From a virus, in IMG/VR virus record IMGVR_UViG_3300017743_000004, positions 4,621 through 68,620 of that record: 64,000 nucleotides of DNA, one strand, 5' to 3'. The notes below the pieces were generated by a model, which was given only the letters and a program-made list of their open reading frames with translations, did not search any database and was not told where the DNA came from. A program made the translations under genes and the position numbers. This document shows positions 2,611 to 30,634 of this stretch, piece after piece; the first letter of the stretch is position 1, and each line of letters begins with the position of its first letter.

Positions 2611-3489
2611 ATGAGCGCATTCAAACAATTTTTAGCACAGGACGTATTAGTATCTCCATTTGAGGTAAATAAAGGATTTTCCTTTACAAGTGAATCATTT
2701 TTAGATTCTGATGTTGGTATTGTAGTATTAGATGGAGTTTCCGGGAGTTTTTTAACCAACCAGGATACTACTAGTATAGGTGATTATCAAGAATTTAAAA
2801 CACTTGTATTTAATTCTATAAAACATCTATATTATTCAAATTATAGTGTTTCTTCATCAGGTGATCCAATTTCACTACCAACAGACATAAGAGGATCTCA
2901 ACCAGAAGGGGATAGAATCCAAGGAGGTAGACCTTATCCAAACTTTGATAATTACCTACAATCTACATTACATTTTAATAGATATACCCCCTCTATTTCT
3001 TCATCAGTATTATCCATTCCTTCTAAATTATATGGGGACCAAATACAACCTCATTCATTTAAATTAACAGATGGTACTACTACTTTTACAGATGATGGGG
3101 AAGGAAATATATTAAATAATAATGCTATTGTAGGAAATATATTTTACCCTCATGGCATAGCCGTAGTAACCTCAGGCTCAACAAACATAGATTTTGTAAC
3201 TGGGTCTGTTACTTGTTCATTCTCATCCTCTAGGACTATCTATGAAACCCAATATAAATGTACTTTAAGAGAAAATGAATTTAATTTTACTCAAAATCCT
3301 TCAATAGTAGAAGGATCCTTATCTGGATCCCTACGAGGGTTTGCAACTGCATCATACTTTGAACCCTACATAACCACAATAGGGTTATATGATGAAGCCC
3401 AAAATCTATTAGCAGTAGGTAAATTAGCAATCCCATACCCATCCCCCAGATCAACAGATACAACTTTTATAATTAATTTAGATAGATAA
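2611..3489 (+). CDS. putative baseplate wedge / tail-collar protein (paralog of previous)
   Basis: C-terminal EFNFTQNPS...ITTIGLYDEAQNLLAVGKL aligns with EFNYSGNPS...ITTVGLYNDTNDLLAVAKL of 1580..2605. Confidence 0.55.
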   Translation: MSAFKQFLAQDVLVSPFEVNKGFSFTSESFLDSDVGIVVLDGVSGSFLTNQDTTSIGDYQEFKTLVFNSIKHLYYSNYSVSSSGDPISLPTDIRGSQPEGDRIQGGRPYPNFDNYLQSTLHFNRYTPSISSSVLSIPSKLYGDQIQPHSFKLTDGTTTFTDDGEGNILNNNAIVGNIFYPHGIAVVTSGSTNIDFVTGSVTCSFSSSRTIYETQYKCTLRENEFNFTQNPSIVEGSLSGSLRGFATASYFEPYITTIGLYDEAQNLLAVGKLAIPYPSPRSTDTTFIINLDR

Positions 3490-3960
3490 ATGTGGCAGTA
3501 TAAACAACAAGTTATAGAATCAGTGGAAGATGTTCCTAAAGATGTTTTTGGTTTTATTTATAGAGTAGTACATGAACCCACAGGACAAATTTACATAGGT
3601 AAAAAAGTACTTTATTTTAACCTAAAACGTAAACTCACTAAAAAAGATTTAGAGATTTACGAGGGTGTTCAGGGTAGAAAACCTAAATTTAAAGTAATAC
3701 AAAAAGAATCAGATTGGAAAACTTATTATGGTTCTAATACCCAAATCAAACAATGGGTTAAAGAAGGAAAACAAGAAGAATTAAAAAGAGAAATTTTAGC
3801 TTGGGGATTGGATAAAAAGCACTTAACTTACCTCGAAACAAAGTACTTGTTTATGTACGAGGTATTAGAAAAAGAAGAATTCCTTAATGATAACATATTA
3901 GGGAAGTTCTTCAAAAAAGATTTTGATGACAAACCAACTGCTACTCTCATTAACCAATAA
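3490..3960 (+). CDS. GIY-YIG family endonuclease
   Basis: GFIYRV...IYIGKK, YYGS, conserved E (YLETKY) and C-terminal N (LNDNI). Confidence 0.75.
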   Translation: MWQYKQQVIESVEDVPKDVFGFIYRVVHEPTGQIYIGKKVLYFNLKRKLTKKDLEIYEGVQGRKPKFKVIQKESDWKTYYGSNTQIKQWVKEGKQEELKREILAWGLDKKHLTYLETKYLFMYEVLEKEEFLNDNILGKFFKKDFDDKPTATLINQ

Positions 3961-4855
3961 AGTTTTAGGAGAAGGCAAACCCACAGCAAGAAATAATTAC
4001 GCGTATAGCTGTCCATTTTGCAATCACCATAAACCAAAACTAGAGGTTAACTTAACAGAAAATAAACAGGGGTTCCATCCTTGGCATTGTTGGGCATGTG
4101 ATAAAAAGGGCAAAACAGTCCTATCACTCTTTAATCAATCTAAGACCCACCCAGATTTTATTTTAGAATTAAAAACTATAGTAAAATACGATTCGGGTAA
4201 TACCACAGAAAAGAAACGAGAACAATTAAAGTTACCTGATGATTTTGTTTCTTTAAAATCTGTTACTAAAAGCGATATTATTGGCAGACACGCGCTTGCA
4301 TATTTAAAAAAGAGAAATGTCACTATAGACGATATTATACGCCATAACATTGGTTATTGCACTAAAGGACGGTATAAAAACATGGTAGTTATACCATCCT
4401 ATAATGAAGATGGATCTTTAAATTTTTTCGTAGGAAGATCATTTACCGAATCTCATATTAAATATCTTAATCCATCTATTTCTAAAGATTTCATCCCATT
4501 TGAAAACACTATTAATTGGAATTTACCTATTATTATATGTGAAGGGATGTTTGATGCTATTTCTATAAAAAGAAATACCATACCATTATTAGGTAAAATA
4601 TTTCCTCAACCTTTATTAAAAAAACTTGCTTCCTCTCAAGTACAAAAAGTATACATTGCCCTAGATAAAGATGCTTTAAAACAGTCTTTAAAATTCTGTG
4701 AGTATCTCCTAAATGAAGGGAAAAAAGTATATTTGGTTGATTTAGATCAAAAAGATCCAAGTGAGATGGGTTTTGAGGCTTTTACTAATCTGGTTCAGAA
4801 AACCAACTCCTTAACATTTTACGATTTAATGGAGAAAAAAATAAGTTTATTATGA
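3923..4855 (+). CDS. DNA primase (Zn finger + TOPRIM)
   Basis: CPFCNH...HCWAC zinc-binding domain; YLKKR; ICEGMFDA and ALDKDA TOPRIM motifs; KDPSE. Confidence 0.9.
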   Translation: MMTNQLLLSLTNKVLGEGKPTARNNYAYSCPFCNHHKPKLEVNLTENKQGFHPWHCWACDKKGKTVLSLFNQSKTHPDFILELKTIVKYDSGNTTEKKREQLKLPDDFVSLKSVTKSDIIGRHALAYLKKRNVTIDDIIRHNIGYCTKGRYKNMVVIPSYNEDGSLNFFVGRSFTESHIKYLNPSISKDFIPFENTINWNLPIIICEGMFDAISIKRNTIPLLGKIFPQPLLKKLASSQVQKVYIALDKDALKQSLKFCEYLLNEGKKVYLVDLDQKDPSEMGFEAFTNLVQKTNSLTFYDLMEKKISLL

Positions 4856-5613
4856 ATAACAAAAAGATAGAAAGAGTTTTAGAAATATCTAAAGACTCTA
4901 AACAAATTACCCTCCCCAATTCCAGATACTATCAAAGAAATGGAGAGTATTATCCTTCAATTACCCATGTTTTATCACATTACCCTAAAGGAAGATATTT
5001 TGAAGATTGGTTAAAAAAGGTAGGTTATAGTTCAGAATATATTGTAAAGAAAGCCTCCGAAGATGGTACTAAAGTTCATAATATGATTGAACTTTATCTA
5101 AATGGCGAGGAATTTCATTTTTTAAATGCTGAAGGCATACCTCAATATGATATTGAAATTTGGAAGCTATTTTTAAAATTTGTTGAGTTTTGGGAAGAAT
5201 ATGAGCCCACATTACTAGAAACTGAAGTACATTTGTTCTCTGACAAACTCAAAGTAGCAGGTACCTGTGATATGGTATGTGAAATGAATAATCAATTGTG
5301 GATTGTAGATTTTAAGACTTCAAACCATGTCCATTCAACATATGATTTGCAAGCAGCAGTTTACGGTCAATGTTTTGAAGAATGTTATGGTATAAAGCCT
5401 GACCGTTATGGTATTCTGTGGTTAAAGTCATCTAAACGTGGTCCTTGGGGAACTAAAATCCAAGGTAAAGGATGGGAAATGTACGAATCTAAGCGTTCAC
5501 AAGAAGAAAATTTAGAGATATTTAATGCTTTACATAAAATCTTTAAAGTAGAGAATCCAAATGCAGTACCTGCGTTTGAAGAATATCCAACTCACATTAA
5601 ACGAAAAGTCTAA
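4852..5613 (+). CDS. PD-(D/E)XK family exonuclease
   Basis: YYPSIT, GTKVH, AGTCD, IVDFKTS, QAAVY motifs typical of phage RecB/Cas4-like exonucleases. Confidence 0.85.
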   Translation: MNNKKIERVLEISKDSKQITLPNSRYYQRNGEYYPSITHVLSHYPKGRYFEDWLKKVGYSSEYIVKKASEDGTKVHNMIELYLNGEEFHFLNAEGIPQYDIEIWKLFLKFVEFWEEYEPTLLETEVHLFSDKLKVAGTCDMVCEMNNQLWIVDFKTSNHVHSTYDLQAAVYGQCFEECYGIKPDRYGILWLKSSKRGPWGTKIQGKGWEMYESKRSQEENLEIFNALHKIFKVENPNAVPAFEEYPTHIKRKV

Positions 5614-5620
5614 TATTTAT
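5613..5620 (+). promoter_or_regulatory. putative late promoter core ATATTTAT
   Basis: Overlaps upstream TAA; 10 nt before ATG at 5631. Confidence 0.65.
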
Positions 5621-5630
5621 TATCAAAAGT

Positions 5631-6428
5631 ATGATTTCTCTAGTTTCACTTTTAAAAGAAGCTGTTTCGTCCCCCAAAGCTATTATATTAGCAGGCGCAC
5701 CTGGAGCAGGAAAAGGTTCAGTATTAAAAGGACTAGATTTATCAGGCTTAAAAACATTTAACTTAGATAATAAGTTTATTGAATTATTAAAAACATCAAA
5801 TGTATCCCTTGATTTAAAATCAGGGGACGCAGAATCAAGATCTAAGGCGGCACAAGCAATGGCCGCCGCAACTAAAAATCTTAAAACAGAACTCATCCCC
5901 CAGGCTATTGAAAATAAACAATCCTTTATATTGGATGGTACTGCAGCTTCCTCTAAACAAACTTTAGAATTAAAAAGTCAATTAGAAAAAGTAGGGTATG
6001 AGGTGATGATGTTGTATGTGTATACTGATTTAGAAACATCTTTAAAACGAAATCAAGAACGATTTGAAAAGTCAGGTGGGGAAGATAGATCATTGATGCC
6101 TTCCATTGTTTTAACTACATGGAATAGTGTAACTAAAAACTTTGATACATATAAGAACGAATTTGAAAATTTTGTTTCTGTAGCAAACACAGGTAAAAGT
6201 GAGACTTTAAAGGACATTAAACAAATTTTAGATAAGTATGTTGAACCTTTTAGACCTACAGATACTAAACCTAAAACTGACAAAGAAGAAGAACGTTCTA
6301 GAAAACAAGCCGAAAAGCTTAATCAAGAAGTACAACAATTTTTATCCTCGGATAAAGTAAAAGATATAATTGACTCTTCTGTTTCTTCAGAGGAAGCTCA
6401 ATCTAAAATTAACGCATTCCTTAAATGA
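5631..6428 (+). CDS. zeta-toxin/AAA_33-like P-loop kinase with N-terminal leader
   Basis: GAPGAGKG Walker A; FILDGT; YVYTDLETSLKRNQER lid; leader MISLVSLLKE. Confidence 0.75.
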   Translation: MISLVSLLKEAVSSPKAIILAGAPGAGKGSVLKGLDLSGLKTFNLDNKFIELLKTSNVSLDLKSGDAESRSKAAQAMAAATKNLKTELIPQAIENKQSFILDGTAASSKQTLELKSQLEKVGYEVMMLYVYTDLETSLKRNQERFEKSGGEDRSLMPSIVLTTWNSVTKNFDTYKNEFENFVSVANTGKSETLKDIKQILDKYVEPFRPTDTKPKTDKEEERSRKQAEKLNQEVQQFLSSDKVKDIIDSSVSSEEAQSKINAFLK

Positions 6429-9400
6429 AAAAACTCGTAGAATCTTTAGTAAATGCCGTTTTAGAGGCAGATGAAAAAGTTATTGGAATCTATGGTGGTG
6501 GATTTAAACCACCTACAGCAGGCCATTACGAGGTAATTGAAAATATCCTTAAAACTAACCCCCAGCTAGATAAACTTTACATAGCCGTAGGGCAAAAAGA
6601 AAGAGATGGTATTACACAAGCAGATTCACTTTTAGTGTTTGATGTTTATAAAAAATATTTTCCATTTAAAGTAGAATTTGTACCTGTAAAATCAGTTTAC
6701 AATTATATTAAAGATTTTGTTGAGGAAAATCCTGATAAAACAGTAATTGCTTTTAGAGGAGCGAGGGAAGGACAAGAAGAAGATTTAGTGGATAACGAGA
6801 CATTTAAAATGTTTTTAGATCGTTACGCACCTGATGTTGAATATAAGCAAGTTAAAACATTAATAACTGGTGTTTCAGGTACTAAAGCTAGACAAGCATT
6901 AAAATCAGGTAATAAAGAAAAATTCTTTAAATATTTACCTACATCTTTATCAAATCTAGATAGAGATAAAATTTACGATATTTTAACTGCTACAGTAGAG
7001 GAAAATGCTAAAAAAGCAGCTATAAATGCCTACTCAAGAGAATTAGCCTTAGGGTTAGAAGAACAACAAGGTAAAACCGGATACAGAGCCGGCTCTATAA
7101 ACCCAAAACTTCCTCAAGAAAGATTAAAAGACAGAGGATTTGCTATTAATCGCTCAACTACAGGTTTATTAGGTACAGGATTTTATTTTTACGGAGATAA
7201 AGATCAAGCTGTAACATCCACCAAAGATGATGGGAGAGATAAATACACAGAAATTGATCTATCTCAATATAAACTCTTTACCCCCTCTAACCCAGAAAAA
7301 TTCTATAATGTAATTAAGAATTTAACACTGTTGTTAACAGATCTTATTTTTGATGAGAAAGTAAATTTTGAAGATGAAAATGTAACTAAACAATTAGATT
7401 TATACTCAAGTTATTTATCTAAAGAATTAGGATTATCTGATTTAGAAATTGAATTAGCAGCACAATCTTTTATAGATGATGTTTCCCAATCTAAAGATGG
7501 TGTTTTATTATCTAATCGTATCTTAAGTGATTATGATGGTATAGATTTAACAGGTACCTCATTAGATAATTTTGCAGTTGGTAGTTTAATATTTGATGGT
7601 AAGCTAAAGCCTGGATCTTATACTTCAACTAAAATACAAGATTTAGAGGAAGTTGGTGAAGCTTCTCAAAAACCTTACAAATGGTCTAAATCAGAATCTT
7701 CTCGTTTTCCTGGTACTATAGATTATAGTTTTATAACAGATAAAGATACCGAATATCAAGCTTATTTTGCCCCTACCTCACCAGGATTTTATGAATTTGG
7801 GTTTAGTGCAGAAGATGGTGATTTATCAGCAACTATAAATAAAGGTGAATTGTTTAGAGTAATGTCTACCATAGTAGATATTATGAAAGATTTTGTAACA
7901 ACAACACCATGGGATAGAATTGAATTTGAAGGATCTAAAGACTTTGAAAGAGTCGAGAAGGGCGTAGAAGATAAGCGTAGAGATAAACTATATAGAGCCT
8001 ATCTTAAAAAGAACCTCTCCAACTTCCCAAATATAGATGTTTTCGTACAAGGTGGTGTAACTTACTTATACAATGAAGATGAGAACAGTTTAACTGAAGT
8101 TGGTGAAGCTACTCAAAAACCATATAAATGGACAGTAAAAAGAAGTTACTGGGAGCCAACATTAATGGAAATTACTTATAGTTTTACTACAGATAAAGGT
8201 ATAAAATATGAAGCATTATTCTACGAAAATGCAGATTATCGGTTTGATTTTCTGTTTTATCCTGAAGATGGAACTGCACTGGATGTTGTAAATAAAGGTG
8301 AATTGTTTAGAGTAATGTCTACCATAGTAGATATTATGAAAGACTTTATAAAAAAAGAAAAATGGAGTGTAATAGAATATTCCTCAGCTAAACAATATGA
8401 GGATGATGACCGTAGAGAAAAATTATATACTGCTTACTTAAAAAAGAATCTCCCTGATGGTATTAGAGCAGAGGAAATGGGTGATGGAGATATTATGTTA
8501 ACAAACCTAAATTTAAAGGAAGCAGACCCTAAAAAAGGTACAGGTAAAAAGCCAAAAGGCAGTGGGCGCAGATTATACACAGATGAAAACCCAAAAGATA
8601 CAGTAAGCATCAAATTCTCTACTAGACAAGATATTGTAGATACCTTAAATAAAAAATCATTTAAAGCTAAATCACATGCTCGCCAATCCCAGATTATCAA
8701 CCTTATTCATCAAAGGGTAAGAGCAGCATATGGTAGAGCAAAAGATCCTGCTGTTAAAAAACGTTTAAAAACAGCTTTAGATTATATTACAAAACGTAAA
8801 GAAGCATCTAAGAAAAAAACCCAACGTTTAAAAAAAGTAAGCGAAGGTGATACTTATGAAAAAATGGCTGCTAAAGGTAAAAAAGCAGGTAATTTAAAAC
8901 AGGGTACTGTTAGAAAAAGATTAGGCATTAAAAAAGGTGAAAAAGTTCCAATGTCTAAAATTAATAAAGAAATCTCCCGTTTAAAGAAAATGGACAAAGA
9001 TAAAGATAAAAAAGGTGTACAATTGGGGGATAAGAACCAAAAATATTATAAAGCCCTACAATTATCTAAAACTTTAAAGTCCACAACTAACATTAGAGAA
9101 GATATGAATGATACAGATGGGGAATTCCAAAAATTATTATCATCTTTAAGTGATTTTTTAAAACAAAAATTAGAATTAAAATCATTACCAAACTTAGAAT
9201 ATATTGATGATGATGTTGAAAACGCTGAAAATATTCTCGGGAATACTGCTTATTATAATCCTAATACCTCTACTATTGTTTTATACACCAAAGGAAGACA
9301 CCCTAAAGACATATTAAGGAGCTACGCTCACGAAATGATACATCATAAGCAAAACGAGGATGGTAAATTCGATGGCAGTATTAACACTTTTAATATCAAC

Positions 9401-9490
9401 CAAGACGACTATCTAAAACAAATAGAGGAGGAAGCATATTTAAACGGAAATATTTTATTTAGAAGTTGGGAAAACACTGTAGAAAAATGA
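6425..9490 (+). CDS. multidomain polyprotein: HxGH nucleotidyltransferase, ADP-ribosyltransferase-like module, two tandem repeats, two basic modules, HExxH metallopeptidase
   Basis: GGGFKPPTAGH and SGTKAR (cytidylyltransferase-like); GYRAG...LGTGFYF (ART-like, weaker call); duplicated EVGEAxQKPYKW module; AHEMIHHKQ...EEEAY zincin motif. Confidence 0.7.
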   Translation: MKKLVESLVNAVLEADEKVIGIYGGGFKPPTAGHYEVIENILKTNPQLDKLYIAVGQKERDGITQADSLLVFDVYKKYFPFKVEFVPVKSVYNYIKDFVEENPDKTVIAFRGAREGQEEDLVDNETFKMFLDRYAPDVEYKQVKTLITGVSGTKARQALKSGNKEKFFKYLPTSLSNLDRDKIYDILTATVEENAKKAAINAYSRELALGLEEQQGKTGYRAGSINPKLPQERLKDRGFAINRSTTGLLGTGFYFYGDKDQAVTSTKDDGRDKYTEIDLSQYKLFTPSNPEKFYNVIKNLTLLLTDLIFDEKVNFEDENVTKQLDLYSSYLSKELGLSDLEIELAAQSFIDDVSQSKDGVLLSNRILSDYDGIDLTGTSLDNFAVGSLIFDGKLKPGSYTSTKIQDLEEVGEASQKPYKWSKSESSRFPGTIDYSFITDKDTEYQAYFAPTSPGFYEFGFSAEDGDLSATINKGELFRVMSTIVDIMKDFVTTTPWDRIEFEGSKDFERVEKGVEDKRRDKLYRAYLKKNLSNFPNIDVFVQGGVTYLYNEDENSLTEVGEATQKPYKWTVKRSYWEPTLMEITYSFTTDKGIKYEALFYENADYRFDFLFYPEDGTALDVVNKGELFRVMSTIVDIMKDFIKKEKWSVIEYSSAKQYEDDDRREKLYTAYLKKNLPDGIRAEEMGDGDIMLTNLNLKEADPKKGTGKKPKGSGRRLYTDENPKDTVSIKFSTRQDIVDTLNKKSFKAKSHARQSQIINLIHQRVRAAYGRAKDPAVKKRLKTALDYITKRKEASKKKTQRLKKVSEGDTYEKMAAKGKKAGNLKQGTVRKRLGIKKGEKVPMSKINKEISRLKKMDKDKDKKGVQLGDKNQKYYKALQLSKTLKSTTNIREDMNDTDGEFQKLLSSLSDFLKQKLELKSLPNLEYIDDDVENAENILGNTAYYNPNTSTIVLYTKGRHPKDILRSYAHEMIHHKQNEDGKFDGSINTFNINQDDYLKQIEEEAYLNGNILFRSWENTVEK
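7836..8343 (+). repeat. 55-bp perfect direct repeat inside two diverged ~149-aa modules
   Basis: TAAATAAAGGTGAATTGTTTAGAGTAATGTCTACCATAGTAGATATTATGAAAGA at 7836-7890 and 8289-8343. Confidence 0.95.
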
Positions 9491-10071
9491 TTAGTTTATT
9501 AGAAATATACGAGCAAGAATCCCAAAAATTAGATCCCTCTAAAGTTGTAATCTTTTCAGATATGGATGGAGTGCTTACAGACTTTGATAAGTACTATGAG
9601 GAGATTACAGGCGTAAATAAAAATTCTAAAATAGCTAAAGACAAAGATATGTTTTATGAGCTATTAAATGATGCCCTAGATAGAAAAGGGATGGACTATA
9701 GAGATTTCTTTGCCCAAATGCCTCCCTTAGCAGACTATATGGAGTATTGGAATTATATTACCTCATTAGGTCGTCCTGTGTATTTGCTAACAGCCCCTAT
9801 GAGACCACCTGAGTCAAGAGATGGAAAAGATGATTGGGCTAAAGAATATTTAACCGGAGTTAAAAAAGTATTATTTTTTGGAAGCAATTATAAACAAAAA
9901 GTAATGGATATTTACTTTAAAATTCCAAAAGATGACCCCTCTCGTAAAAACTTAATACTTATTGACGACAGAGAAGGTAATATTACAAATTGGAGAAAAG
10001 CAGGTGGAACAGGTATACTACATACAAGCGCAGCCGATACTATCTCCCAGCTTAAAAAATTAGGTTTATGA
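9487..10071 (+). CDS. HAD-family 5'(3')-nucleotidase-like phosphatase
   Basis: DMDGVLTDF motif I, LLTAP motif II, K, LIDDR motif IV, AGGTGILH. Likely start ATG 9487 (ATGA overlap), giving leader MISLLEIYE. Confidence 0.85.
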   Translation: MISLLEIYEQESQKLDPSKVVIFSDMDGVLTDFDKYYEEITGVNKNSKIAKDKDMFYELLNDALDRKGMDYRDFFAQMPPLADYMEYWNYITSLGRPVYLLTAPMRPPESRDGKDDWAKEYLTGVKKVLFFGSNYKQKVMDIYFKIPKDDPSRKNLILIDDREGNITNWRKAGGTGILHTSAADTISQLKKLGL

Positions 10072-11712: not shown

Positions 11713-12303
11713 ATGAGCTTTGATTTAAAAAAATATTTAGCAAATAATATACTGCTAACTGAAGATATTGGAAATTTACCTCAATTAGACCCAACTGATT
11801 TAAAAGGGGTAGATTTAACTAAAGCAGTAAAAGAAACTTTAGATGAAGATGAAATTCTTAATGAAGCTCTTGCAACTTTAGTAGTAGGTGGTATTTTAGC
11901 CGCTCCTAAACTTATTAATTGGTTAGGTAAAGCTATTAAATCAATTCAAAAGTTTTTTAATAAGAAAAGTGAAACAGAAGTAGCAGATTCTATTGCAGAG
12001 TTTGGACATAAATGGGAAAAACTTTACCTAAAAGCTATCATATCAGTTATTAAGCTTACAGGATTTGCTAAGTCCCAATGGAAAATGAAAGACGGAGAAA
12101 TAGACGAACAAAAATTAGTTACTATTGCAAAAATGATATTAATGGTTATTTTAATAGTAGCTGCATCACTTGGTATAGGAGGAGTAATTTCAGCAAAATC
12201 CTCAATTGTTAAAGCTCTAGAAGGAACTTTTACTGGGGTTAAAGGTACTGAAATAAAGGCCTTACTTAGTACAATTATGACCCAACTTTCTTCCTTTAAA
12301 TAA
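11713..12303 (+). CDS. probable head-internal protein with hydrophobic helices
   Basis: Leader MSFDLKKYL; two hydrophobic segments after ILNE. Confidence 0.55.
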   Translation: MSFDLKKYLANNILLTEDIGNLPQLDPTDLKGVDLTKAVKETLDEDEILNEALATLVVGGILAAPKLINWLGKAIKSIQKFFNKKSETEVADSIAEFGHKWEKLYLKAIISVIKLTGFAKSQWKMKDGEIDEQKLVTIAKMILMVILIVAASLGIGGVISAKSSIVKALEGTFTGVKGTEIKALLSTIMTQLSSFK

Positions 12304-12610: not shown

Positions 12611-13315
12611 ATGGCAAATAAATTTGACCTAGAAAAATATTTAAAAGAAAATAAAGTACTTTCTCAATCTGGGAGATCTTTAATTTCAGAAGCTAGACCT
12701 AGTGGATTCGGTAGTGGAACAGGACGTAGTAAAACTATCGCTAAAGGTGGAGAAGGTAACCCCGAAGTTATAGCTAAACTTAAAGCTAAGGAAAAAGAAG
12801 AAGAAGAAAAGCTTGCAAAATCCAAAGAAGCTAGAAAATTCAAAATGATTGACGGTGTTCCTCATAAGTTTAAGGATGGAAAATTTGTACCCTTAAAGAA
12901 AAAGATGCAGGAAATGGATGATGATGATACTGGTGCTTCATTAGAAGACCTCTACCAAATGGACCAGGAAATGTTAGATAAGCTAAAAAGAGATAAAAAA
13001 TATCCTGATCTTGATGATGTAGTAGATCCTGATGATCCGTTTGATTTAGAACTTCAACGTGCTATGGATAATGATGATATGATGGAGGCTAAAGATGATG
13101 AAGTAGAAGACATCGATGTTGAAGACGACGAGGAAATGGAAGTAGAAGAGCCTGCTGATGATGAGCCTATAATGGGAGATGAAATCTCAGATGAGAAACA
13201 AGACCTTCAAAAACAACTCACCCAGGCATACAATTCAGCCTTAAAAATGGGAGATGAAAAGTTAACTACACAGTTATCTAATACTATTACATATTACTTA
13301 AAAACTTTGTTTTAA
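12611..13315 (+). CDS. probable head-internal protein (basic then acidic modules)
   Basis: Leader FDLEKYLKEN; alternating charge blocks. Confidence 0.55.
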   Translation: MANKFDLEKYLKENKVLSQSGRSLISEARPSGFGSGTGRSKTIAKGGEGNPEVIAKLKAKEKEEEEKLAKSKEARKFKMIDGVPHKFKDGKFVPLKKKMQEMDDDDTGASLEDLYQMDQEMLDKLKRDKKYPDLDDVVDPDDPFDLELQRAMDNDDMMEAKDDEVEDIDVEDDEEMEVEEPADDEPIMGDEISDEKQDLQKQLTQAYNSALKMGDEKLTTQLSNTITYYLKTLF

Positions 13316-14265: not shown

Positions 14266-14741
14266 CAAGAGAAGAACTCCGGGATAGAATTAGAACTATA
14301 GTAAAGTCTATTTATCAAGATAGAACTGACCTTGATATGCCCAAAGCAGAGTATGATGAAATCACAAAATTTCCTCAACTCAAACAGGCCCTCACAGATC
14401 TACTTACCCCAGAGTTCGATATGTTTATAGATACTATAGATTATGTAGCACCTAAACCTACTACTTTCCGTATTAATTTAAAAAACGGAGAAAATTTTAT
14501 GCTAGTATATGATCCTCGTTCATTTGTAGCTAAAATTGAAGGTAAAAAATATTATATTTTAAATTTAAATGAGCTTGAGTTAGCATGTATAGCATTAGCT
14601 CGTTTATTATCATATGGAGAGTCTTTATCTCCGGAAGAGGCCGAAGCAGCAGAAACAGCAGCCGCGGAAACTACAGCCGATGAATTTGATACAGAGGAGC
14701 CTGCTGAAGAACCTGCTGAAGAAACTCCTGAAGAATTATAA
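14262..14741 (+). CDS. hypothetical protein with acidic tail
   Basis: Leader ELRDRIRTIVK; E/A/P-rich C-terminus. Confidence 0.6.
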   Translation: MTREELRDRIRTIVKSIYQDRTDLDMPKAEYDEITKFPQLKQALTDLLTPEFDMFIDTIDYVAPKPTTFRINLKNGENFMLVYDPRSFVAKIEGKKYYILNLNELELACIALARLLSYGESLSPEEAEAAETAAAETTADEFDTEEPAEEPAEETPEEL

Positions 14742-15223
14742 TGAAAAATTTTGACCTAAAAGAATATTTAAAAGACACTAAAAAGTGTCCTACTCCTACT
14801 CAGGATGTAGCCTTAAATACAGCTAATAGAGATAGAGCAATTCAAGCTGACTTTATTAGATATGGTCCTTTAAATGTAGAAAAACCTGGTGATTATTGGG
14901 AAATAACTGCTAAAAAATGGAATACTACAGTTGAAGCCGCTAAAGCCTCAAGATGTGCTAATTGTGTAGCATTCGATGTTTCACCTAGAATGATTGATAA
15001 ATGCATACCTGCGATAGCTTCTGAACCTGTTGAAGATAAAGATGGGATTTTAGGTTATTGTTGGATGCACCAATTTAAATGTCATTCAGCAAGATCATGT
15101 AATACTTGGGCTGCAGGTGGGCCTATCAGTAAAAATGACGTATCTTACGATTGGCAAAAAAGAAATTTAAAAGCAGCTCTAGACCCAGAACCCATAGATC
15201 CTGATATGTACAAAGACGATTAA
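14741..15223 (+). CDS. Cys-rich metal-binding phage protein
   Basis: Leader FDLKEYLK; CANCVAF...GYC...C...C..W. Confidence 0.6.
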   Translation: MKNFDLKEYLKDTKKCPTPTQDVALNTANRDRAIQADFIRYGPLNVEKPGDYWEITAKKWNTTVEAAKASRCANCVAFDVSPRMIDKCIPAIASEPVEDKDGILGYCWMHQFKCHSARSCNTWAAGGPISKNDVSYDWQKRNLKAALDPEPIDPDMYKDD

Positions 15224-16465
15224 ATGGACGCATTAGAAAAATTTTTAAATAGTGTAGCTTATAAATTTGATAAAGGGTATCCTGATGTAAATAATGCACA
15301 GGATATTTCTCTTTTAGAAGAATTAATCAGCAAAACATTAGGTGAATCCTTCAGTTTTGATATCTTGAAAGAAGAATTATTTATTTTTGAAGCTACAGAT
15401 AGAGAAATCTCATCGAATACTAAAAAAGCAGTAGCTGATATTATCCAAAACGCAGATTCATCTTTTGGGTTTAAAGCTCAATCCAACGCAAATCGTTTAG
15501 GTAATCCTAACAAAGTAGATCCTGAAAAAGTCCAACAGGTATTTAAAGATACTATTGGTGTTGAAGGAGAAATTAAAATTTATAATCCACGTTCAGGACC
15601 TAACCCCTCAGGTAAATTCGATATGTATGAATTTGATTCTGAAAAATACGGTCCTGTTAGAATTGTTTTAAGTGGTGGAGGTAACGCTGGTGAAAAATAC
15701 GAGAAAGAATTCGTAGCTAAATCTAAAGCAACAGCAGGAGATTCTAAAGAAAACCTTCCAACAGACCTTAAAACATTATATTCTTCCTTAGGTATTGATA
15801 ATACTAAACTAACCCCAGACGATATCGAGTTTGCGGGTGCTACAGACACAAAAAGATCACTATCACTAGAAGGTCCCAAAGATATTGGTAAAATCATTTC
15901 GGACATGACCATTAAATATAATGGTAAAGAATATTATATCTCATTAAAAAATAAAGCAGGTTCAGGTATCTACTCAGGTAAAAATATACCTTTCATCTAT
16001 GATAAAGATGGTATTGTAGTATATGATGCTTCTAAAAAAGGAAGTGCTCCTGGTATTGATTTATTGTTTGACATTTTTAATATAGATGAAGAAAAGTTAG
16101 CCCAAGGTTTAAATAATTTTAAAAATCAAGAAGGTGAGGTTGATAGTTTTTCTCCAGTAGATATTGATAAAGATAAATTTAAAAACTTACTTGCTTCATC
16201 TTTAGGATATGGTTATTATTATGTTAGAGAAAAAGGAAAAGGTGATGTAAAAGTTATTCCTTTGCTTACAGCTGAAGACGCTATGGATGCTGTTGGTACT
16301 ATTAAGAATACTCAAGTTAAATATCCTGGTCCTAATACAAAACAATTAACTATAAAAATTGATACTGATAGTCCTACATTTGGATCATCACAATATCAAG
16401 TAGCAGTTAGGAATACCCAAGGTAAATTTTTACCATTATCATTAAGAATTTCAAAAGTTAAATAA
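15224..16465 (+). CDS. restriction-endonuclease-fold (PD-(D/E)XK-like) protein with N-terminal leader
   Basis: GEKYEKE helix, ISDMTI and YISLK resemble the E...PD...(E/S)xK catalytic layout. Confidence 0.5.
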   Translation: MDALEKFLNSVAYKFDKGYPDVNNAQDISLLEELISKTLGESFSFDILKEELFIFEATDREISSNTKKAVADIIQNADSSFGFKAQSNANRLGNPNKVDPEKVQQVFKDTIGVEGEIKIYNPRSGPNPSGKFDMYEFDSEKYGPVRIVLSGGGNAGEKYEKEFVAKSKATAGDSKENLPTDLKTLYSSLGIDNTKLTPDDIEFAGATDTKRSLSLEGPKDIGKIISDMTIKYNGKEYYISLKNKAGSGIYSGKNIPFIYDKDGIVVYDASKKGSAPGIDLLFDIFNIDEEKLAQGLNNFKNQEGEVDSFSPVDIDKDKFKNLLASSLGYGYYYVREKGKGDVKVIPLLTAEDAMDAVGTIKNTQVKYPGPNTKQLTIKIDTDSPTFGSSQYQVAVRNTQGKFLPLSLRISKVK

Positions 16466-16467
16466 CT

Positions 16468-17259
16468 ATGTGCGACTGTGGATGTAATACTTGCGACAAT
16501 ACTAAAATCTCGTTAAACGAGAGCTTAGTCCCTAAACAATTAGCCCCACAGATCCTATCCGAGGGCTTAAACTACCATTTAGAAAACAATATTCCATTAT
16601 ACGAGAATATCTACCAGTATGGTTCAGAAAAGTATTTTACTTTACTAAACGAGGCTAGAAAATTATACACTAGAGGAATGTTAGATTTAAATGAAGATGA
16701 TGAAGATTTAATTAGAACTAACATTGGTGCTTTTGGAATATGCGAAGGTAAAAGAGTTCCTTTAGATTTTCCCATGTTGAACGAGGATTTAGACGAACAA
16801 AAAGAGTATACTAAAGGTGATTTTGAACAAATGGCTTCAAGGGAATTTAAACCCGGAGAAGCTACTAATTCAGATATAGTAGCCCTTGCTAGAAAAGCAT
16901 TTTTGGATTATAAGTTTGGGAGAGGATTTAAACAATATTTCCCTAAAACTTTTTTAGACGAAGCTAAAAAGAAAAAGAAAAAAGACCCTCCAATTGGAAA
17001 ACCAATGCGTTCCTCCTCAGGAGGTAAAGCATATAAAGTATATGTTAAAGATCCTAAAACTGGAAATATCAAAACAATACGTTTCGGTTCAGGTGGATTA
17101 AAAGCTAAAATTAATGACCCAAAGGCAAGAGCAGCGTTTTCAAAACGTCATAATTGCCCACAAAAGAAAGATAGAACTAAGGCCTCATATTGGTCTTGTA
17201 GACTACCACGTTATGCAAAATTACTCGGACTTAAATCAAGCTTCAGTGGATTCTGGTAA
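16468..17259 (+). CDS. modular phage protein with basic C-terminal domain
   Basis: CDCGCNTC start; multiple LNE/LDE boundaries; KVYVKDPKTGNIKTIRFG...RH.C...YWSCR domain. Confidence 0.6.
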   Translation: MCDCGCNTCDNTKISLNESLVPKQLAPQILSEGLNYHLENNIPLYENIYQYGSEKYFTLLNEARKLYTRGMLDLNEDDEDLIRTNIGAFGICEGKRVPLDFPMLNEDLDEQKEYTKGDFEQMASREFKPGEATNSDIVALARKAFLDYKFGRGFKQYFPKTFLDEAKKKKKKDPPIGKPMRSSSGGKAYKVYVKDPKTGNIKTIRFGSGGLKAKINDPKARAAFSKRHNCPQKKDRTKASYWSCRLPRYAKLLGLKSSFSGFW

Positions 17260-17544: not shown

Positions 17545-17976
17545 ATGGGCAACTTTAATTTAAAAAAATATTTAGCTGAAGGTAGATTACTTAACGAATA
17601 CGCCCCAAACATCAGTCTTTATGATGAAGACAATAGAATTTCCGCTGCTATAACCAGGTTTGTTAAAAAGGCTATGGATGATGAGAAAACGGGAGATCAG
17701 ATAATGGATATTATAATCACAAGAGCAAAGGACGGTATTGAAAAATGGCAGAGATCAAAAAAAGATACTGGAAAAGGTAGAGTAAACGAAGGTATCTTTG
17801 GTACTTCTTATGAAGAGAAGTTAAACAAGGCTATAGATAGGTTTGTTCAAAAAAGAATGGACTATGGGGGAGTTGGTGTATTAGATACAATACAGAATAT
17901 CTTAAGAAATATAGCAAAGGATGAAATCAGACGATATGATCGCATCAAACGAGGTCTATACGTTGCTAAAAAATAA
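17545..17976 (+). CDS. probable head-internal protein with internal duplication
   Basis: Leader FNLKKYLAE; two repeats AI.RFV.K.MD...I...AKD.I, each preceded by [LV]NE. Confidence 0.6.
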   Translation: MGNFNLKKYLAEGRLLNEYAPNISLYDEDNRISAAITRFVKKAMDDEKTGDQIMDIIITRAKDGIEKWQRSKKDTGKGRVNEGIFGTSYEEKLNKAIDRFVQKRMDYGGVGVLDTIQNILRNIAKDEIRRYDRIKRGLYVAKK

Positions 17977-25004: not shown

Positions 25005-25877
25005 ATGTCAATAAAGCATTCAAAATATAAGAATACGGGTATTTTATTTGAACTTTTAGTAAGAAGGGTTACAGCTGATACCCTCAACGAAAAGGAATCC
25101 CCCGCATTAAAATTAATTAAAAAATATTTTTCTAAAACAGAATTATCTAAGGAGTTAAAACTTTACGAATCTGTATCTAAATCAAACGGGATATCAGAAA
25201 ACCAAGCTAACTCTTTAATTCAAACTTTATTAGAAAATTCTAAAAGACTAAATAGAAAAACTTTAAAGTCTGAAAAGTATAACTTAATTTCTGAGATTAA
25301 GGGTTTTTATAATCTAGATGAGTTTTTTAAAACTAAACTTCCTAATTATAAAACATTTTCCTCATTCTTTACACTTTTGGAAATTTACAACACCAATCTC
25401 TATATCAACCCAGATGAGATTGTTAAAAACAAACAAACCCTTCTAGAACAAATTTGTAAAGCAAATATCTCTGAAAATTCAGTTAAAGAAAACTTAGTAA
25501 ATGAGTTTCAAACATACGATAAAGATTTAAGATTACTTACTTATAAACTCTTATTAGAAAAATTTAACACCAAGTACTCTAACCTTAATAGATATCAGAA
25601 ACAAATCTTAAAAGAATTTATTACCTCTGTAGATTCTACTCCTAAGTTAAGAGAAATTTATAATTTAAGATCTTCTCAATTAAAAGCAATTTTAGAAACA
25701 TTTAATAAAAAAATTACAGATAATGTAATTAAAATTAAATTGAATGAAGTTGTGTCTTTATTAGAAGTTAAAACTAATAAATGTTCTGTTAAATCAAATG
25801 ATATTTTTAATTTACTTCAATATTTTGAATTAATTGAAGAATTAAATAAAATTCATGGACCTAAGAGATCGAATTAA
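25005..25877 (+). CDS. head-assembly region helical protein
   Basis: KHSKYKNTGILFELL start; sits between portal and protease. Confidence 0.6.
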   Translation: MSIKHSKYKNTGILFELLVRRVTADTLNEKESPALKLIKKYFSKTELSKELKLYESVSKSNGISENQANSLIQTLLENSKRLNRKTLKSEKYNLISEIKGFYNLDEFFKTKLPNYKTFSSFFTLLEIYNTNLYINPDEIVKNKQTLLEQICKANISENSVKENLVNEFQTYDKDLRLLTYKLLLEKFNTKYSNLNRYQKQILKEFITSVDSTPKLREIYNLRSSQLKAILETFNKKITDNVIKIKLNEVVSLLEVKTNKCSVKSNDIFNLLQYFELIEELNKIHGPKRSN

Positions 25878-26100: not shown

Positions 26101-26336
26101 TGGGCTACGGCTATAAATTAAAGGAAAACCAAGATCCTAAACAATTCCAACAAGAGAGAATTGAAGGATTTGAAAAAATTAGTGATAGAATGTTTGAGAT
26201 TGCCTCTCTATTAAGAAAAGCAAAATTAAACACTAAACAATTTTATGAGGAAAATCCTGACTCATATAATGTTGTATACGGAACAGATTTGATTCAGGAC
26301 TATTTAGAAGATATAACTACATTACTAAACAAATGA
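26100..26336 (+). CDS. hypothetical protein
   Basis: Coupled by TAATG overlap; preceded by ATATTTAT at 26087-26094. Confidence 0.6.
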   Translation: MGYGYKLKENQDPKQFQQERIEGFEKISDRMFEIASLLRKAKLNTKQFYEENPDSYNVVYGTDLIQDYLEDITTLLNK

Positions 26337-27166
26337 AAACAATTCAAGAACATTACATAGCTTTAAAAGAGGGAAAAACCTCTAAATCTTATTTTCATAA
26401 GTTAGCTAAATCATTATTTCCACATTTGGTATCTAACCAAAATTCATTTAATGATTCTCTTAAAATCTTAAAAAATAGAGGTATTATTACTGAAGAGGTT
26501 AAAGCCGTAGAGAAAAAAACATCTAAAGATGTAATGGATGTTCAGGCTAAGCAATACAACTATCAAGATAAAAACAATATTGATACTGTATATGGGGCTG
26601 AATTTTTAAAGGGATTTTATGCGGAAATTAAAGACCCTGCTAATAAAGATAAAACCCCAGATGATATTAAAGAAATTGTTAGAAAAAATTTAACTAAATC
26701 TGCTACTCATTATACAGAAAATTCCGCTTTTGGAATCAAGGGTATCGGATATGGTAAAGCAGAACAACCTAAAGAAGTAACAGGTAAATATAAGTCTTCA
26801 GGATATGGTGATTTGAAAGAATCTAAAGTTCCTACAATGACTGAACTTTTACTTGAAGGTAAAAAGAAAACAAATTCAGTAGAAGATAAATTATCCGAAA
26901 TTGAAGAGAGTGGTGCAATCGTTACTTTAGAAACTCAAATCGAGGCTGTAGAAGAAATGATTGAAACAAAATGTCAAAGATTAGAAATGATCTCCGAAGA
27001 CGATAACCTATCAGAGTTAGTAGATCCAAAGAGAATTAAGGAACTGCAAAAGGAAATTAAGATCTTAGAAAAGAGAAAAGCCAAAATGCAGAAAATGTAC
27101 GAAAAACTAACCGGAAAGGCTAAGAAAAAACAAATCGTAGATGAAACAAATACTGATAGAGACTAA
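26333..27166 (+). CDS. probable prohead core protein
   Basis: Multiple [LI]xE sites and C-terminal coiled coil, immediately upstream of the protease. Confidence 0.55.
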   Translation: MKTIQEHYIALKEGKTSKSYFHKLAKSLFPHLVSNQNSFNDSLKILKNRGIITEEVKAVEKKTSKDVMDVQAKQYNYQDKNNIDTVYGAEFLKGFYAEIKDPANKDKTPDDIKEIVRKNLTKSATHYTENSAFGIKGIGYGKAEQPKEVTGKYKSSGYGDLKESKVPTMTELLLEGKKKTNSVEDKLSEIEESGAIVTLETQIEAVEEMIETKCQRLEMISEDDNLSELVDPKRIKELQKEIKILEKRKAKMQKMYEKLTGKAKKKQIVDETNTDRD

Positions 27167-27737
27167 TATCTTTAAACCTACTGTTTCTATCAATGAAGGT
27201 AAAACCTCATCTGATGGAAATTTACTAGTACAAGGTATCCTTTCTACAGCCGAAAAACAAAACGGCAATGGTAGAGAGTATCCAATGGAAATCCTTGAAA
27301 GAGAAATTAATAAATACATGGAGGTAGTTAAGGAAAACAGAGCATTAGGTGAGTTAGATCACCCTGATTCTCAAGTTGTTAACCTTAAAAACGTATCCCA
27401 TAAAATCAACGATATGAAATTCGTTGGAAAAAAAGTAATGGGCACTATTGAAATTTTACCTACCCCATCCGGAAATATTTTAAAAGCACTATTTGCAAGC
27501 AACGTTCCTGTAGGAATTTCTTCTCGTGGGATGGGCTCTCTAAAACAAGTAGGAGAAGTAATGGAGGTGCAAGACGATTTCGAACTCTTATGTTATGATT
27601 TTGTCTCTACCCCTTCTAACCCAGGATCCTACATGAGTCCTTTAAACGAATCTCTTACTGAATCCAATATTTATAATAAAACCAATTCTATCATTACAGA
27701 TATTTTATGCTCTAACGATAGATGTCCAATTTACTAA
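27141..27737 (+). CDS. prohead core protease (T4 gp21-like)
   Basis: NGNGREYP, ALGELDHP, VSH, GISSRGMGS, YDFVSTPS. Confidence 0.95.
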   Translation: MKQILIETNIFKPTVSINEGKTSSDGNLLVQGILSTAEKQNGNGREYPMEILEREINKYMEVVKENRALGELDHPDSQVVNLKNVSHKINDMKFVGKKVMGTIEILPTPSGNILKALFASNVPVGISSRGMGSLKQVGEVMEVQDDFELLCYDFVSTPSNPGSYMSPLNESLTESNIYNKTNSIITDILCSNDRCPIY

Positions 27738-29506: not shown

Positions 29507-30634
29507 ATGGCTGATAAGCAATTATTAAAAGAGGCCATTGCAGAAGCTAAAACCATTAAAGAAGTTGCTATTGCAAACGCAAAAGCTGCTCTTGAAGAAA
29601 CCTTCTCTCCAGTGCTAAAAGAAAAATTAGCAGCTATGATGGAAGAAGATGAAAAAATGGAAGAGGCTGATACAATGGAAGAAGCTAAAAACGAAATGGA
29701 AGAAGATGAAAAAATGGATGAAACTTATTCCTACCAAGAAGAAGGTATGGATCAGAATGAAAACATGGATGAAGCTTCTTTAGAGGAGTTATTAGCTGAA
29801 CTCGAAGAAGGTGAAGACACGAACGAGGAAGATAAAGTGAACGAGGCTGAATTGGATGAAGCTGAAGGCGATATGGACCTCGAAGAAATGTCTGAAGACG
29901 AATTAAAATCATTCGTCGAAGAAGTTATTGAAGATATGGTTCAAGCTGGTGAATTAGAAGCCGGTGGTGATCCTGTTGAAATGTCTGATGAAGAAGAAGA
30001 AGAGGAAGGTAAAGAGGAAATGGAAATGGATTCTATGGAAGAAGTTAACATTGACGAATTACTTTCAGAAGAAGACGTAAACGAGTTTGATCTTGCAGGC
30101 GCAGAAATGATTGCTCCTGAACTTATCGGTGGCGTCATTGCCGCACTTGGAGCACTTGGATTAGGTGCAGCGATCGATAAAGAGGAACTTAAGAAAATGT
30201 CATCTGACAAGCTTAAGGCTCTTGCTGCAAAACTCGGTGTAGGTAAGAAGAACGAGGAAGTCGAAGAAGGAGACATAGAGGAAATGAAGGAAGAGTTAGA
30301 TGAGTTAAAAGGTGAACTTTCCGAAGTTAACTTACTCAATGCTAAACTTCTTTACACCAACAAGCTCTTCCGTTCTAGAAGCTTAACAGAATCACAAAAA
30401 GTAAAAGTTTTATCAACATTTGATAAAGCTACTTCGGTAAAAGAAGTTAAATTAGTATTTGAGACACTCTCAGACTCATTAACTACTTCCCAGGTTGTAA
30501 AAGAAAATAAAGGTTCCGCATCTAGACCCACAGGTGGGGCTAGTAAAAATCCTCAACCGATCTTAGAATCTAACGATCAGGTTAGGAGATGGCAAAAATT
30601 AGCCGGTATTACTACCGATAAATCCTATACATAA
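29507..30634 (+). CDS. prohead scaffold protein (gp22-like)
   Basis: Very acidic coiled coil between protease and capsid genes; EVNLLNAKLLY; RWQKLAGI tail. Confidence 0.85.
   Translation: MADKQLLKEAIAEAKTIKEVAIANAKAALEETFSPVLKEKLAAMMEEDEKMEEADTMEEAKNEMEEDEKMDETYSYQEEGMDQNENMDEASLEELLAELEEGEDTNEEDKVNEAELDEAEGDMDLEEMSEDELKSFVEEVIEDMVQAGELEAGGDPVEMSDEEEEEEGKEEMEMDSMEEVNIDELLSEEDVNEFDLAGAEMIAPELIGGVIAALGALGLGAAIDKEELKKMSSDKLKALAAKLGVGKKNEEVEEGDIEEMKEELDELKGELSEVNLLNAKLLYTNKLFRSRSLTESQKVKVLSTFDKATSVKEVKLVFETLSDSLTTSQVVKENKGSASRPTGGASKNPQPILESNDQVRRWQKLAGITTDKSYT

Follow-up and report, generated by a model that had tools for sequence, protein, structure and literature searches.

How does a tailed phage come to string a nucleotidyltransferase, an ADP-ribosyltransferase (ART)-like fold, small basic proteins and a zincin along one open reading frame (ORF), and what is the function of the short hydrophobic-x-Glu motifs that separate them? 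The question is raised by a 64,000-nucleotide (nt) stretch of viral DNA (the window; positions 4,621 to 68,620 of IMG/VR record IMGVR_UViG_3300017743_000004), whose source record is a single 68.6-kb contig and which belongs to a myovirus with a T4-type head. An earlier reading, made from the letters of the window without database searches (the sequence-only reading), proposed that a 1021-amino-acid (aa) protein encoded at 6425..9490 on the plus strand is a polyprotein with [LIV]-x-E sites, of the type cut by prohead proteases, at all its module boundaries. The ORF is present in the window, and all eight of the quoted strings exist, with their Glu residues at positions 14, 193, 213, 409, 558, 699, 807 and 892. 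We confirmed that such sites, hereafter phi-x-E (a hydrophobic residue, any residue and Glu), are placed non-randomly at the boundaries, and we propose, with about an even chance of being right, that the ORF encodes a cargo polyprotein that is targeted to the capsid and processed there by the phage's own prohead protease. From its N-terminus the protein comprises a leader, a nucleotidyltransferase, a helical connector, an ART-fold module, two DUF6934 repeats, basic modules A and B and an HExxH zincin (Table 1); the modules are also called beads below.

Placement of phi-x-E sites in the protein and its family

The sites are unremarkable in number. The protein contains 16 [LIV]-x-E motifs against 15.2 ± 3.3 expected (2000 shuffles), so that an overall enrichment was rejected and the claim turns on where the sites lie. 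When the query was compared with 121 relatives by BLAST, homology broke at about residues 193, 409/410, 552-558, 700-710, 803-808 and 893-903, and in some relatives the blocks were permuted, as in P0049, in which the zincin precedes the basic block. In a full-length AlphaFold model (71-sequence alignment; mean predicted local distance difference test score (pLDDT) 66.7), the stretches with pLDDT<50, namely 553-562, 698-721, 805-824 and 884-895, include E558, E699, E807 and E892. With the poorly modelled residues 200-414 left out, linkers account for 82 of 806 residues yet hold 5 of the 13 sites (binomial p = 0.007). Two checks put forward in the sequence-only reading, whether predicted boundaries match the sites and whether sites are more frequent at boundaries than within domains, therefore both came out in its favour. 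The junction sites are also retained in the family alignment (E14 in 49/55 sequences, E193 in 40/41, E807 in 54/66 and E892 in 67/67, with Glu807 itself present in 66/66 aligned sequences), and the interior sites are poorly retained (E6 7/60, E39 16/70, E101 5/70, E582 2/20, E651 4/21 and E1002 5/70). These counts were taken column by column from a MAFFT alignment (A1), in which E409, E558 and E699 were not assessable because shuffled modules misalign, and motif anchors were used for them instead.

The family offered a broader view of the junctions. Among 8000 scored candidates, 1987 marine metagenomic relatives were found at E<=1e-3, the best 120 of which are 580-1780 aa long; of 624 candidate stretches in a scan of viral contigs, 613 were confirmed, and the basic bead alone returned at least 8000 candidates. 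In nearly all relatives the nucleotidyltransferase ends in hydrophobic-x-Glu, and the next bead, which opens GRKKKKDPKKG.., VGEA..PY.W (DUF6934), RIAFTPDF.. or GDTYEKMA.., starts directly after the Glu; two mini-beads found at this position themselves end in I-D-E or I-T-E. Segments preceding the zincin, whatever their kind, end in phi-x-E, mostly [VIL]-N-E. For each bead we then took the distinct contexts on its left side and counted those with a [LIVM]-x-E whose end is 0-6 residues from the conserved start. The motif was present in 67/69 contexts of basic A, 37/38 of basic B (immediately before its start), 8/8 of DUF6934, 6/6 of the RIxF bead and 6/6 of the GRYD bead, against 10.6% of random positions, and in 22/41 contexts of the NT5C bead, the anchor of which lies deeper inside the domain; because the relatives share ancestry and are not independent samples, these counts overstate the number of evolutionary events. 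An anchor-free comparison gave a similar picture: of 368 distinct peaks of high-scoring segment pair (HSP) ends in an all-versus-all BLAST, 108 fell exactly on [LIVM]-x-E (1.6% at random) and 169 fell on it or within a few residues (9.7% at random), and Glu at the P1 position of these peaks was 4.5x background.

The beads that relatives have acquired are diverse. A Pfam scan of 39 relatives found an Fe/Mn superoxide dismutase (SOD), a plastocyanin-type copper protein and NT5C in 3/39 each. Relatives also add DUF5661, a ligase-like bead with K-I-D-G, a second module of the HEIEH type and a weak HYD1-type ART. The Fe/Mn SOD is complete and stands mid-chain between phi-x-E junctions (P0071, P0107 and P0121), as does the plastocyanin/azurin-type domain (P0084, P0107 and P0117), both without a signal peptide; the nucleotidyl-ligase-like K-I-D-G bead is likewise mid-chain between phi-x-E motifs in P0123 and in the ORF at 2995..6360 of locus L029. 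Across relatives, gain, loss and permutation occur exactly behind phi-x-E, showing that modules are exchanged behind a three-residue junction, as the sequence-only reading had supposed when it described them as addable or swappable. The junctions persist without the HExxH motif in the 1281-aa P0123 and in several two-module proteins; the case of P0123 points to a protease acting in trans. Taken with the family, the original observation is considerably stronger than the sequence alone could reveal, and the interpretation offered with it is supported in part.

The N-terminal leader, the candidate protease and the operon

Directly before beta-strand 1 of the nucleotidyltransferase, 98 of 121 relatives carry an amphipathic segment of 10-16 residues that ends in phi-x-E. 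Seven more, bringing the total with a leader to 105/121, have an extra module between the leader and the nucleotidyltransferase, which marks the leader as a separate unit. Short phi-x-E leaders also precede the ART-fold module in 9 of the 15 proteins in which it is N-terminal or stands alone, and standalone basic-A mini-polyproteins of 140-210 aa begin with a 10-residue leader of the type MIKLxDILxE. Among the 10-residue leaders of standalone modules, position 4 is Leu in 21/22, position 7 is Ile, Leu or Val in 20/22 and position 8 is Leu in 21/22, Glu10 being required by the selection pattern. The capsid-targeting sequence (CTS) of T4 comprises the first 10 residues of internal protein IPIII, of which mainly residues 4 and 7 serve targeting and residues 8 and 10 serve processing (PMC9026906). 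Positions 4, 7, 8 and 10 of the leader match those mapped in the T4 CTS, suggesting a CTS-like element, and the short N-terminus ending in (L/I)-x-E that characterizes T4-type internal proteins is recognizable here as a sequence pattern.

Other N-termini in the window recall leaders as well. The head-core-region protein encoded directly upstream of the protease gene begins with the leader-like MKTIQEHYIALKE and ends it with L-K-E. Four otherwise unrelated small ORFs (11713..12303, 12611..13315, 14741..15223 and 17545..17976) share the N-terminus M..F[DN]LK[KE]YL, which continues to ..LL[TN]E in two of them and may be a second kind of targeting leader; those at 12611 and 17545 also have the head/tail-type upstream motif described below. 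In addition, the N-terminus of the 15224..16465 product, MDALEKFLNSVAYKFDKGYPDVNN, resembles an element of about 45 residues, M..[LI].KFL...SYKFPKGYPD.N, which several metagenomic proteins (P0141-P0146) carry ahead of their ART-fold module.

A candidate for the processing enzyme is encoded in the same window. The gene at 27141, which the sequence-only reading had called a gp21 homologue, was assigned to Peptidase_S77 at E 7.6e-28, and an S77 protease was present in 5/5 long related contigs examined. The Gp23-family capsid proteins of the window and five related contigs share a conserved ..ENQAKQL[LV]xE at about residue 61, close to the end of the propeptide in T4, the gp23 of which loses 65 residues (PMC9026906). 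The prohead protease of phiKZ cuts at S/A-x-E, which the same source describes as reminiscent of the T4 motif. With the documented specificity of its family (Glu at P1 and a small or hydrophobic residue at P3), the S77 protease is the candidate that fits the junctions. Two proteins of the head region are very rich in phi-x-E: the 25005..25877 product has 20 sites in 290 aa, and the extremely acidic, scaffold-like 29507..30634 product has 25 sites in 375 aa, densities that would be expected for scaffold or core proteins degraded by a gp21-type protease. One 268,739-bp viral contig (G001), which holds the related locus L024, had widely separated matches, two to S77 and two or three to Gp23, and may be a chimeric or double assembly.

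The polyprotein gene belongs to a co-directional, translationally coupled gene run. The stop codon of the Zeta_toxin-like kinase gene overlaps the polyprotein start as ATGA, and the ATG of the NT5C 5'-nucleotidase gene overlaps the polyprotein stop in the same way. In many relatives NT5C, which begins MISLLEIYE.. here, is joined to the polyprotein as its final bead (A1 consensus; P0015, P0050 and P0120), and thus its split or fused state varies within the family. The expression context of this run was approached through an upstream motif, ATATTTATAA(A/C)CAAAA, which occurs in 14 exact copies on the plus strand and one on the minus strand. For most copies the distance to the following ATG is 12-25 nt, and the genes concerned are head/tail genes and some small ORFs (portal, 25005, 39026, sheath, tube, 48679, 49734 and 51773; small ORFs 12611, 17545 and 20363); none of the window's replication genes has the motif. 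It is probably a promoter or leader element of the structural genes of this phage, its timing class being suggested only by the genes that it accompanies. A weight matrix built from the 14 exact sites gave 17.9 bits to the site at 5613, upstream of the kinase gene; this is the best non-training site in the window and outscores two of the training sites themselves. Furthermore, 9/80 related loci scanned have ATATTTAT[AT]A upstream of the polyprotein at about 770-900 nt, a distance of roughly one kinase gene. Variants of the motif, ATATTTATTA, occur at 897, 5613 and 44129. The T4 late-promoter consensus is TATAAATA; its 22 matches in the window, against 15.2 expected, were uninformative by themselves, and its minus-strand matches led to the plus-strand motif ATATTTATAA.

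Proposed capsid targeting and its alternatives

The proposed capsid-targeted polyprotein would work as follows. The kinase, polyprotein and NT5C genes would be expressed together with the head genes, and the leader, acting like the T4 capsid-targeting sequence, would carry the polyprotein into the core of the prohead during assembly. The Peptidase_S77 (gp21-type) protease would then cut after every junction Glu, removing the leader and connector and freeing seven or eight independent proteins, which would stay with the DNA and probably be ejected with it. S77 cleavage and capsid targeting are the best-supported mechanism, with about an even chance of being right; injection is what we infer on top of both. 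Since a bead would need only a three-residue terminal motif, beads could be added, lost and reordered freely, and the family shows the free addition, loss and reordering that the mechanism predicts. We also count in its favour the L-x-E at about residue 61 of the capsid protein together with the encoded S77 protease, the basic beads of 9.6 and 12.3 kDa with isoelectric points (pI) >10, which are like T4 internal proteins, and the head/tail-type motif before the operon.

Several observations weigh against this proposal, in addition to the shared ancestry of the relatives. The leader is absent from 16/121 polyproteins, which start directly at beta-strand 1 (that of L029 does so just after a primase gene), from 6/15 N-terminal ART-fold proteins and from several basic-A proteins. 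The polyprotein gene lies in a block of replication and nucleotide-metabolism genes (primase, exonuclease, kinase and NT5C), with the terminase gene 12 kb downstream, and the motif at 5613 has one mismatch to the core consensus. E193 and E213 fall in a predicted long continuous helix (177-215) with no loop. Many beads are ordinary enzymes (nucleotidyltransferase, NT5C, Fe/Mn SOD and plastocyanin), the injected use of which is not obvious. The term effectors, which the sequence-only reading had used for the cleaved pieces, is also uncertain, given these enzymes and the leaderless relatives.

The protein also has its own zincin, the invariant catalytic residues of which could do the cutting. We consider it unlikely, but worth weighing, that the IrrE-like HExxH zincin or a HEIEH-type module cuts the junctions in cis or in trans in the cytoplasm and that the pieces work within the infected cell and are left unpackaged. 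H969, E970, H973 and E1001 are invariant in 71 sequences, the zincin is modelled at pLDDT ~90, and the HExxH module is found in all 120 listed relatives, in a search that was biased towards it. Its feature neighbours in the ESM Atlas (0.94-0.97), taken as a lead only, are IrrE N-terminal-like (IrrE/M78) standalone viral clusters of 124-131 aa, with SprT-like clusters also nearby. Zincin autoproteolysis is, moreover, a published prediction for polyvalent proteins (PMC5512222), and both the position of the gene among replication genes and the leaderless variants would suit a cytoplasmic process. However, P0123 and several two-module proteins keep phi-x-E without any HExxH, and a cis-acting peptidase leaves the phi-x-E leaders of single standalone modules unexplained. 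The zincin itself occurs as a standalone viral protein of 124-131 aa and thus looks like one more cargo bead. P1 Glu specificity is not known among IrrE-like zincins, and none turned up in the analysis. For prohead proteases, P1 Glu specificity is documented (PMC9026906).

Cleavage itself could be doubted. If the protein were an uncleaved multidomain ('polyvalent') enzyme, phi-x-E would be a helix-capping or linker convention and the leader a helix with another role, which we regard as quite unlikely. The chance-level number of sites and the continuous helix around E193 and E213 are as this explanation would have it, and N4 virion RNA polymerase, ArdC and TraC1 are delivered unprocessed (PMC5512222). 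The motif, however, stands at nearly every junction between unrelated beads (92-100% versus 10.6% at random) and also ends the 10-residue leader of single-domain proteins, and Fe/Mn SOD and plastocyanin, normally free oligomeric enzymes, are embedded mid-chain. Ordinary interdomain linkers are unconserved in sequence. It is more improbable still that a host enzyme or another phage glutamyl endopeptidase cleaves phi-x-E with no link to the capsid, as might be thought from leaderless variants that retain the junction motif and from metabolic beads that suit a cytoplasmic role. No enzyme of this kind was seen in the window (PHROGs on 62 ORFs; Pfam on nine selected ORFs), the S77 protease is the sole candidate found and is present in all five related long contigs examined, and the leader agrees in pattern with the mapped positions of the T4 CTS.

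It is quite possible, though short of an even chance, that capsid targeting of this kind is general, with marine T4-like phages sharing a plug-and-play cargo grammar of one capsid-targeting leader of 10-14 residues followed by any number of beads that each end in phi-x-E. Whatever protein was added to such a string could be taken into the prohead, released by the head protease and delivered along with the DNA; the beads seen so far include ART, nucleotidyltransferase, NT5C, Fe/Mn SOD, plastocyanin, a ligase-like domain, zincin and histone-like basic proteins. If this is true, the virion is the carrier of a variable enzyme kit, of which ocean metagenomes hold thousands of bead combinations, and tailed phages follow a polyprotein strategy that asks no more of a new capsid-delivered protein than a three-residue protease site. 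Such a strategy would explain the fast diversification of the injected-protein repertoire. Capsid targeting, known from single small proteins in T4, would then apply to whole strings of enzymes in uncultured marine phages of a very abundant group, and a design rule taken from nature would be at hand for packing several foreign proteins into T4-type capsids.

Known systems, individual modules and neighbouring genes

The locus combines features of two known systems. With the T4 internal proteins (IPI-III and Alt) it shares a short leader ending in hydrophobic-x-Glu (in the 10-residue version, Glu at 10 and hydrophobic residues at 4, 7 and 8), the presence in one phage of a Gp23-type capsid protein together with a gp21-family protease, and small basic and ART-fold cargo in a highly variable repertoire. 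T4 Alt is a packaged ART, paralleled here by the ART-fold bead, and the basic internal proteins of T4 are in the range of about 8-20 kDa (PMC9026906). In T4 every cargo has a gene and a leader to itself; here a single leader is followed by as many as eight or more putative cargos, metabolic enzymes among them, with internal sites between them, and the likeness is one of sequence pattern. With the polyvalent proteins of phages and conjugative elements (Iyer et al. 2017, PMC5512222) it shares many unrelated enzymatic domains per phage polypeptide, extensive shuffling, a predicted proteolytic release and, less surely, a weakly ART-PolyVal-like fold and a zincin-like HExxH domain. The published model of polyvalent proteins involves autoproteolysis by a metallopeptidase (MPTase) domain and either head-gene neighbours or MuF fusions (PMC5512222); here, phi-x-E at every junction fits a prohead protease, the leader is CTS-like and the gene, set among replication genes, is neither beside head/packaging genes nor fused to MuF. 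A Pfam scan of the ORF matched no polyvalent-protein family. Because virion proteins of this kind with predicted proteolytic release have already been described (PMC5512222), the polyprotein strategy that the sequence-only reading had proposed for a tailed phage is not wholly new. The combined architecture was not found described in our literature search, which did not extend to subscription journals.

Head-internal proteins of phiKZ, 201phi2-1 and SPN3US are cut after Glu, sometimes at several sites per protein (PMC9026906), and resemble the polyprotein in the three-residue motif and in a protease related to T4 gp21. Their cuts remove propeptides or fragment inner-body and ejection proteins, whereas the sites here part complete, swappable enzyme domains, and P3 is Ser or Ala there and hydrophobic here. 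The polyproteins of RNA viruses are likewise single translation products with short conserved sites between independent proteins, cleavage being predicted here; they encode the replication and structural core together with their own protease, whereas the beads here are accessory and variable and the protease is likely encoded elsewhere in the genome.

Among cultured phages, a tblastn search of 50,697 phage records returned only four records, all of immuto. The gp088 product of Flavobacterium phage vB_FspM_immuto (907 aa, annotated as nicotinamide mononucleotide adenylyltransferase) lies in the same gene order (primase, exonuclease, hypothetical, gp088 and NT5C) and has nucleotidyltransferase and HEMIHH modules; its phi-x-E sites precede the nucleotidyltransferase (E286), the zincin (E565) and a GRYD module (E702). 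It has no N-terminal leader, starting instead with a Pol-beta-like nucleotidyltransferase; a second HEIEH module is present, and the ART-fold, basic and DUF6934 beads are missing. Phage-record and literature searches, the latter not covering subscription journals, found no virion proteome of a carrier phage.

The module assignments behind this comparison differ in strength. Residues 15-193 have a PPAT/NadD/NMNAT fold (Foldseek template-modelling (TM) score up to 0.83 to E. coli PPAT; E down to 2.9e-6), with a Rossmann-like core and (T/H)xGH and ISxTxxR-type motifs, and T31, G33 and H34 (TAGH) and S151, G152, T153 and R156 (S-G-T-x-x-R) are invariant in the alignment; the Pfam match to CTP_transf_like is weak (E 0.13). 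The nucleotidyltransferase of the sequence-only reading holds as a fold, and its HxGH motif reads TAGH, a T/HxGH variant. In relatives, the (F/Y)AREL..LEE element of the connector is also found ahead of other modules. When residues 214-409 were modelled by themselves with 30 relatives, they formed a single compact domain (pLDDT 93.2; predicted TM score 0.88) with VIA Z 5.0-5.6 to diphtheria-toxin homologues, ParT and RES toxin, and several ART-PolyVal-like proteins in BFVD match it weakly (Foldseek E 0.028-0.16). No Pfam family was found for this module and 29 relatives, and a Foldseek search of the PDB gave no match at E<=0.001, so that the ART-like label given to it earlier is plausible, through weak, consistent matches, at the level of the fold only. 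Its best match, a pre-ejectosome chain of cyanophage A4 (Z 6.2, E 0.028), was too weak to build on. The motifs G-Y-[RH]-x-G and G-T-G-[FY]-Y-F are kept in its family, which has 56 representative relatives, standalone and embedded.

The two repeats that had been read from the letters proved to be tandem copies of DUF6934 (E 2e-9; 38 bits against a gathering cut-off of 27), both of which open VGEA[ST]QKPYKW. Basic modules A and B are the most conserved part of the family (80-88% identity); their best ESM Atlas neighbours, at 0.81, were rejected as lying inside the range reached by shuffled proteins. A phmmer search of PDB sequences gave no match to the zincin, and the basic modules had two chance-level matches at E 0.78. 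In Pfam, the zincin matched no zincin family at cut-off, with a weak hit to DUF6647 alone (E 0.25), and a single relative matched M78 weakly (E 0.049).

Table 1. Features of the polyprotein, its operon and the head genes, in window coordinates
Feature	Position	Strand	Basis or remark
Primase gene	from 3923	+	first of coupled run
PD-(D/E)XK-type exonuclease gene	from 4852	+	between primase and kinase
Head/tail-type upstream motif (ATATTTATTATCAAAAG)	5609..5632	+	17 nt before kinase ATG
Zeta_toxin-like P-loop kinase	5631..6428	+	Pfam Zeta_toxin E 2.1e-20; leader MISLVSLLKE
Modular polyprotein, 1021 aa (stop included in ORF)	6425..9490	+	ORF list
Leader, aa 1-14 (MKKLVESLVNAVLE), ends V-L-E	6425..6466	+	predicted helix 2-13 (AlphaFold)
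T/HxGH nucleotidyltransferase, aa 15-193, ends T-V-E-E	6467..7003	+	Foldseek; invariant motifs
20-residue helical connector, aa 194-213 (..AYSRELALGLEE)	7004..7063	+	low-confidence helix in model
ART-fold module, aa 214-409, ends D-L-E-E	7064..7651	+	fold comparison
DUF6934 repeat 1, aa 410-558, ends S-L-T-E	7652..8098	+	Pfam PF22028
DUF6934 repeat 2, aa 559-699, ends N-L-K-E	8099..8521	+	Pfam PF22028
Basic module A, aa 700-807, ends K-V-S-E	8522..8845	+	12.3 kDa, pI 10.7
Basic module B, aa 808-892, ends N-I-R-E	8846..9100	+	9.6 kDa, pI 10.2
HExxH zincin, aa 893-1021 (HEMIHH ... E1001), and stop	9101..9490	+	motif, model
NT5C 5'-nucleotidase, separate ORF	9487..10071 (ORF listed from 9466)	+	Pfam NT5C E 1.8e-7
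ATATTTATAA(A/C)CAAAA copies	11185, 12589, 17524, 20337, 23109, 24984, 26087, 27667, 39007, 46313, 48076, 48657, 49712, 51758	+	
Terminase gene	from 21526		window annotation
Portal protein gene	from 23122		window annotation
Head-core-region protein, leader-like N-terminus	26333..27166	+	directly upstream of protease gene
Prohead protease, candidate processing enzyme	27141..27737	+	Pfam Peptidase_S77 E 7.6e-28; phrog_207 E 1.3e-53
Gp23-family major capsid protein	30637..32304	+	Pfam Gp23 E 2.4e-69

Sheath and tube proteins are also encoded in the window. Just upstream of the primase gene lies a gene for a SegE-type GIY-YIG homing endonuclease (3490..3960; Pfam E 2.1e-24). Finally, the C-terminal part of the 16468..17259 product (KKKKKKDPPIGKP..YKVYVKDPKTG..) matches phrog_7595 and opens with a lysine-rich K..DP..GKP that is reminiscent of the start of basic module A.

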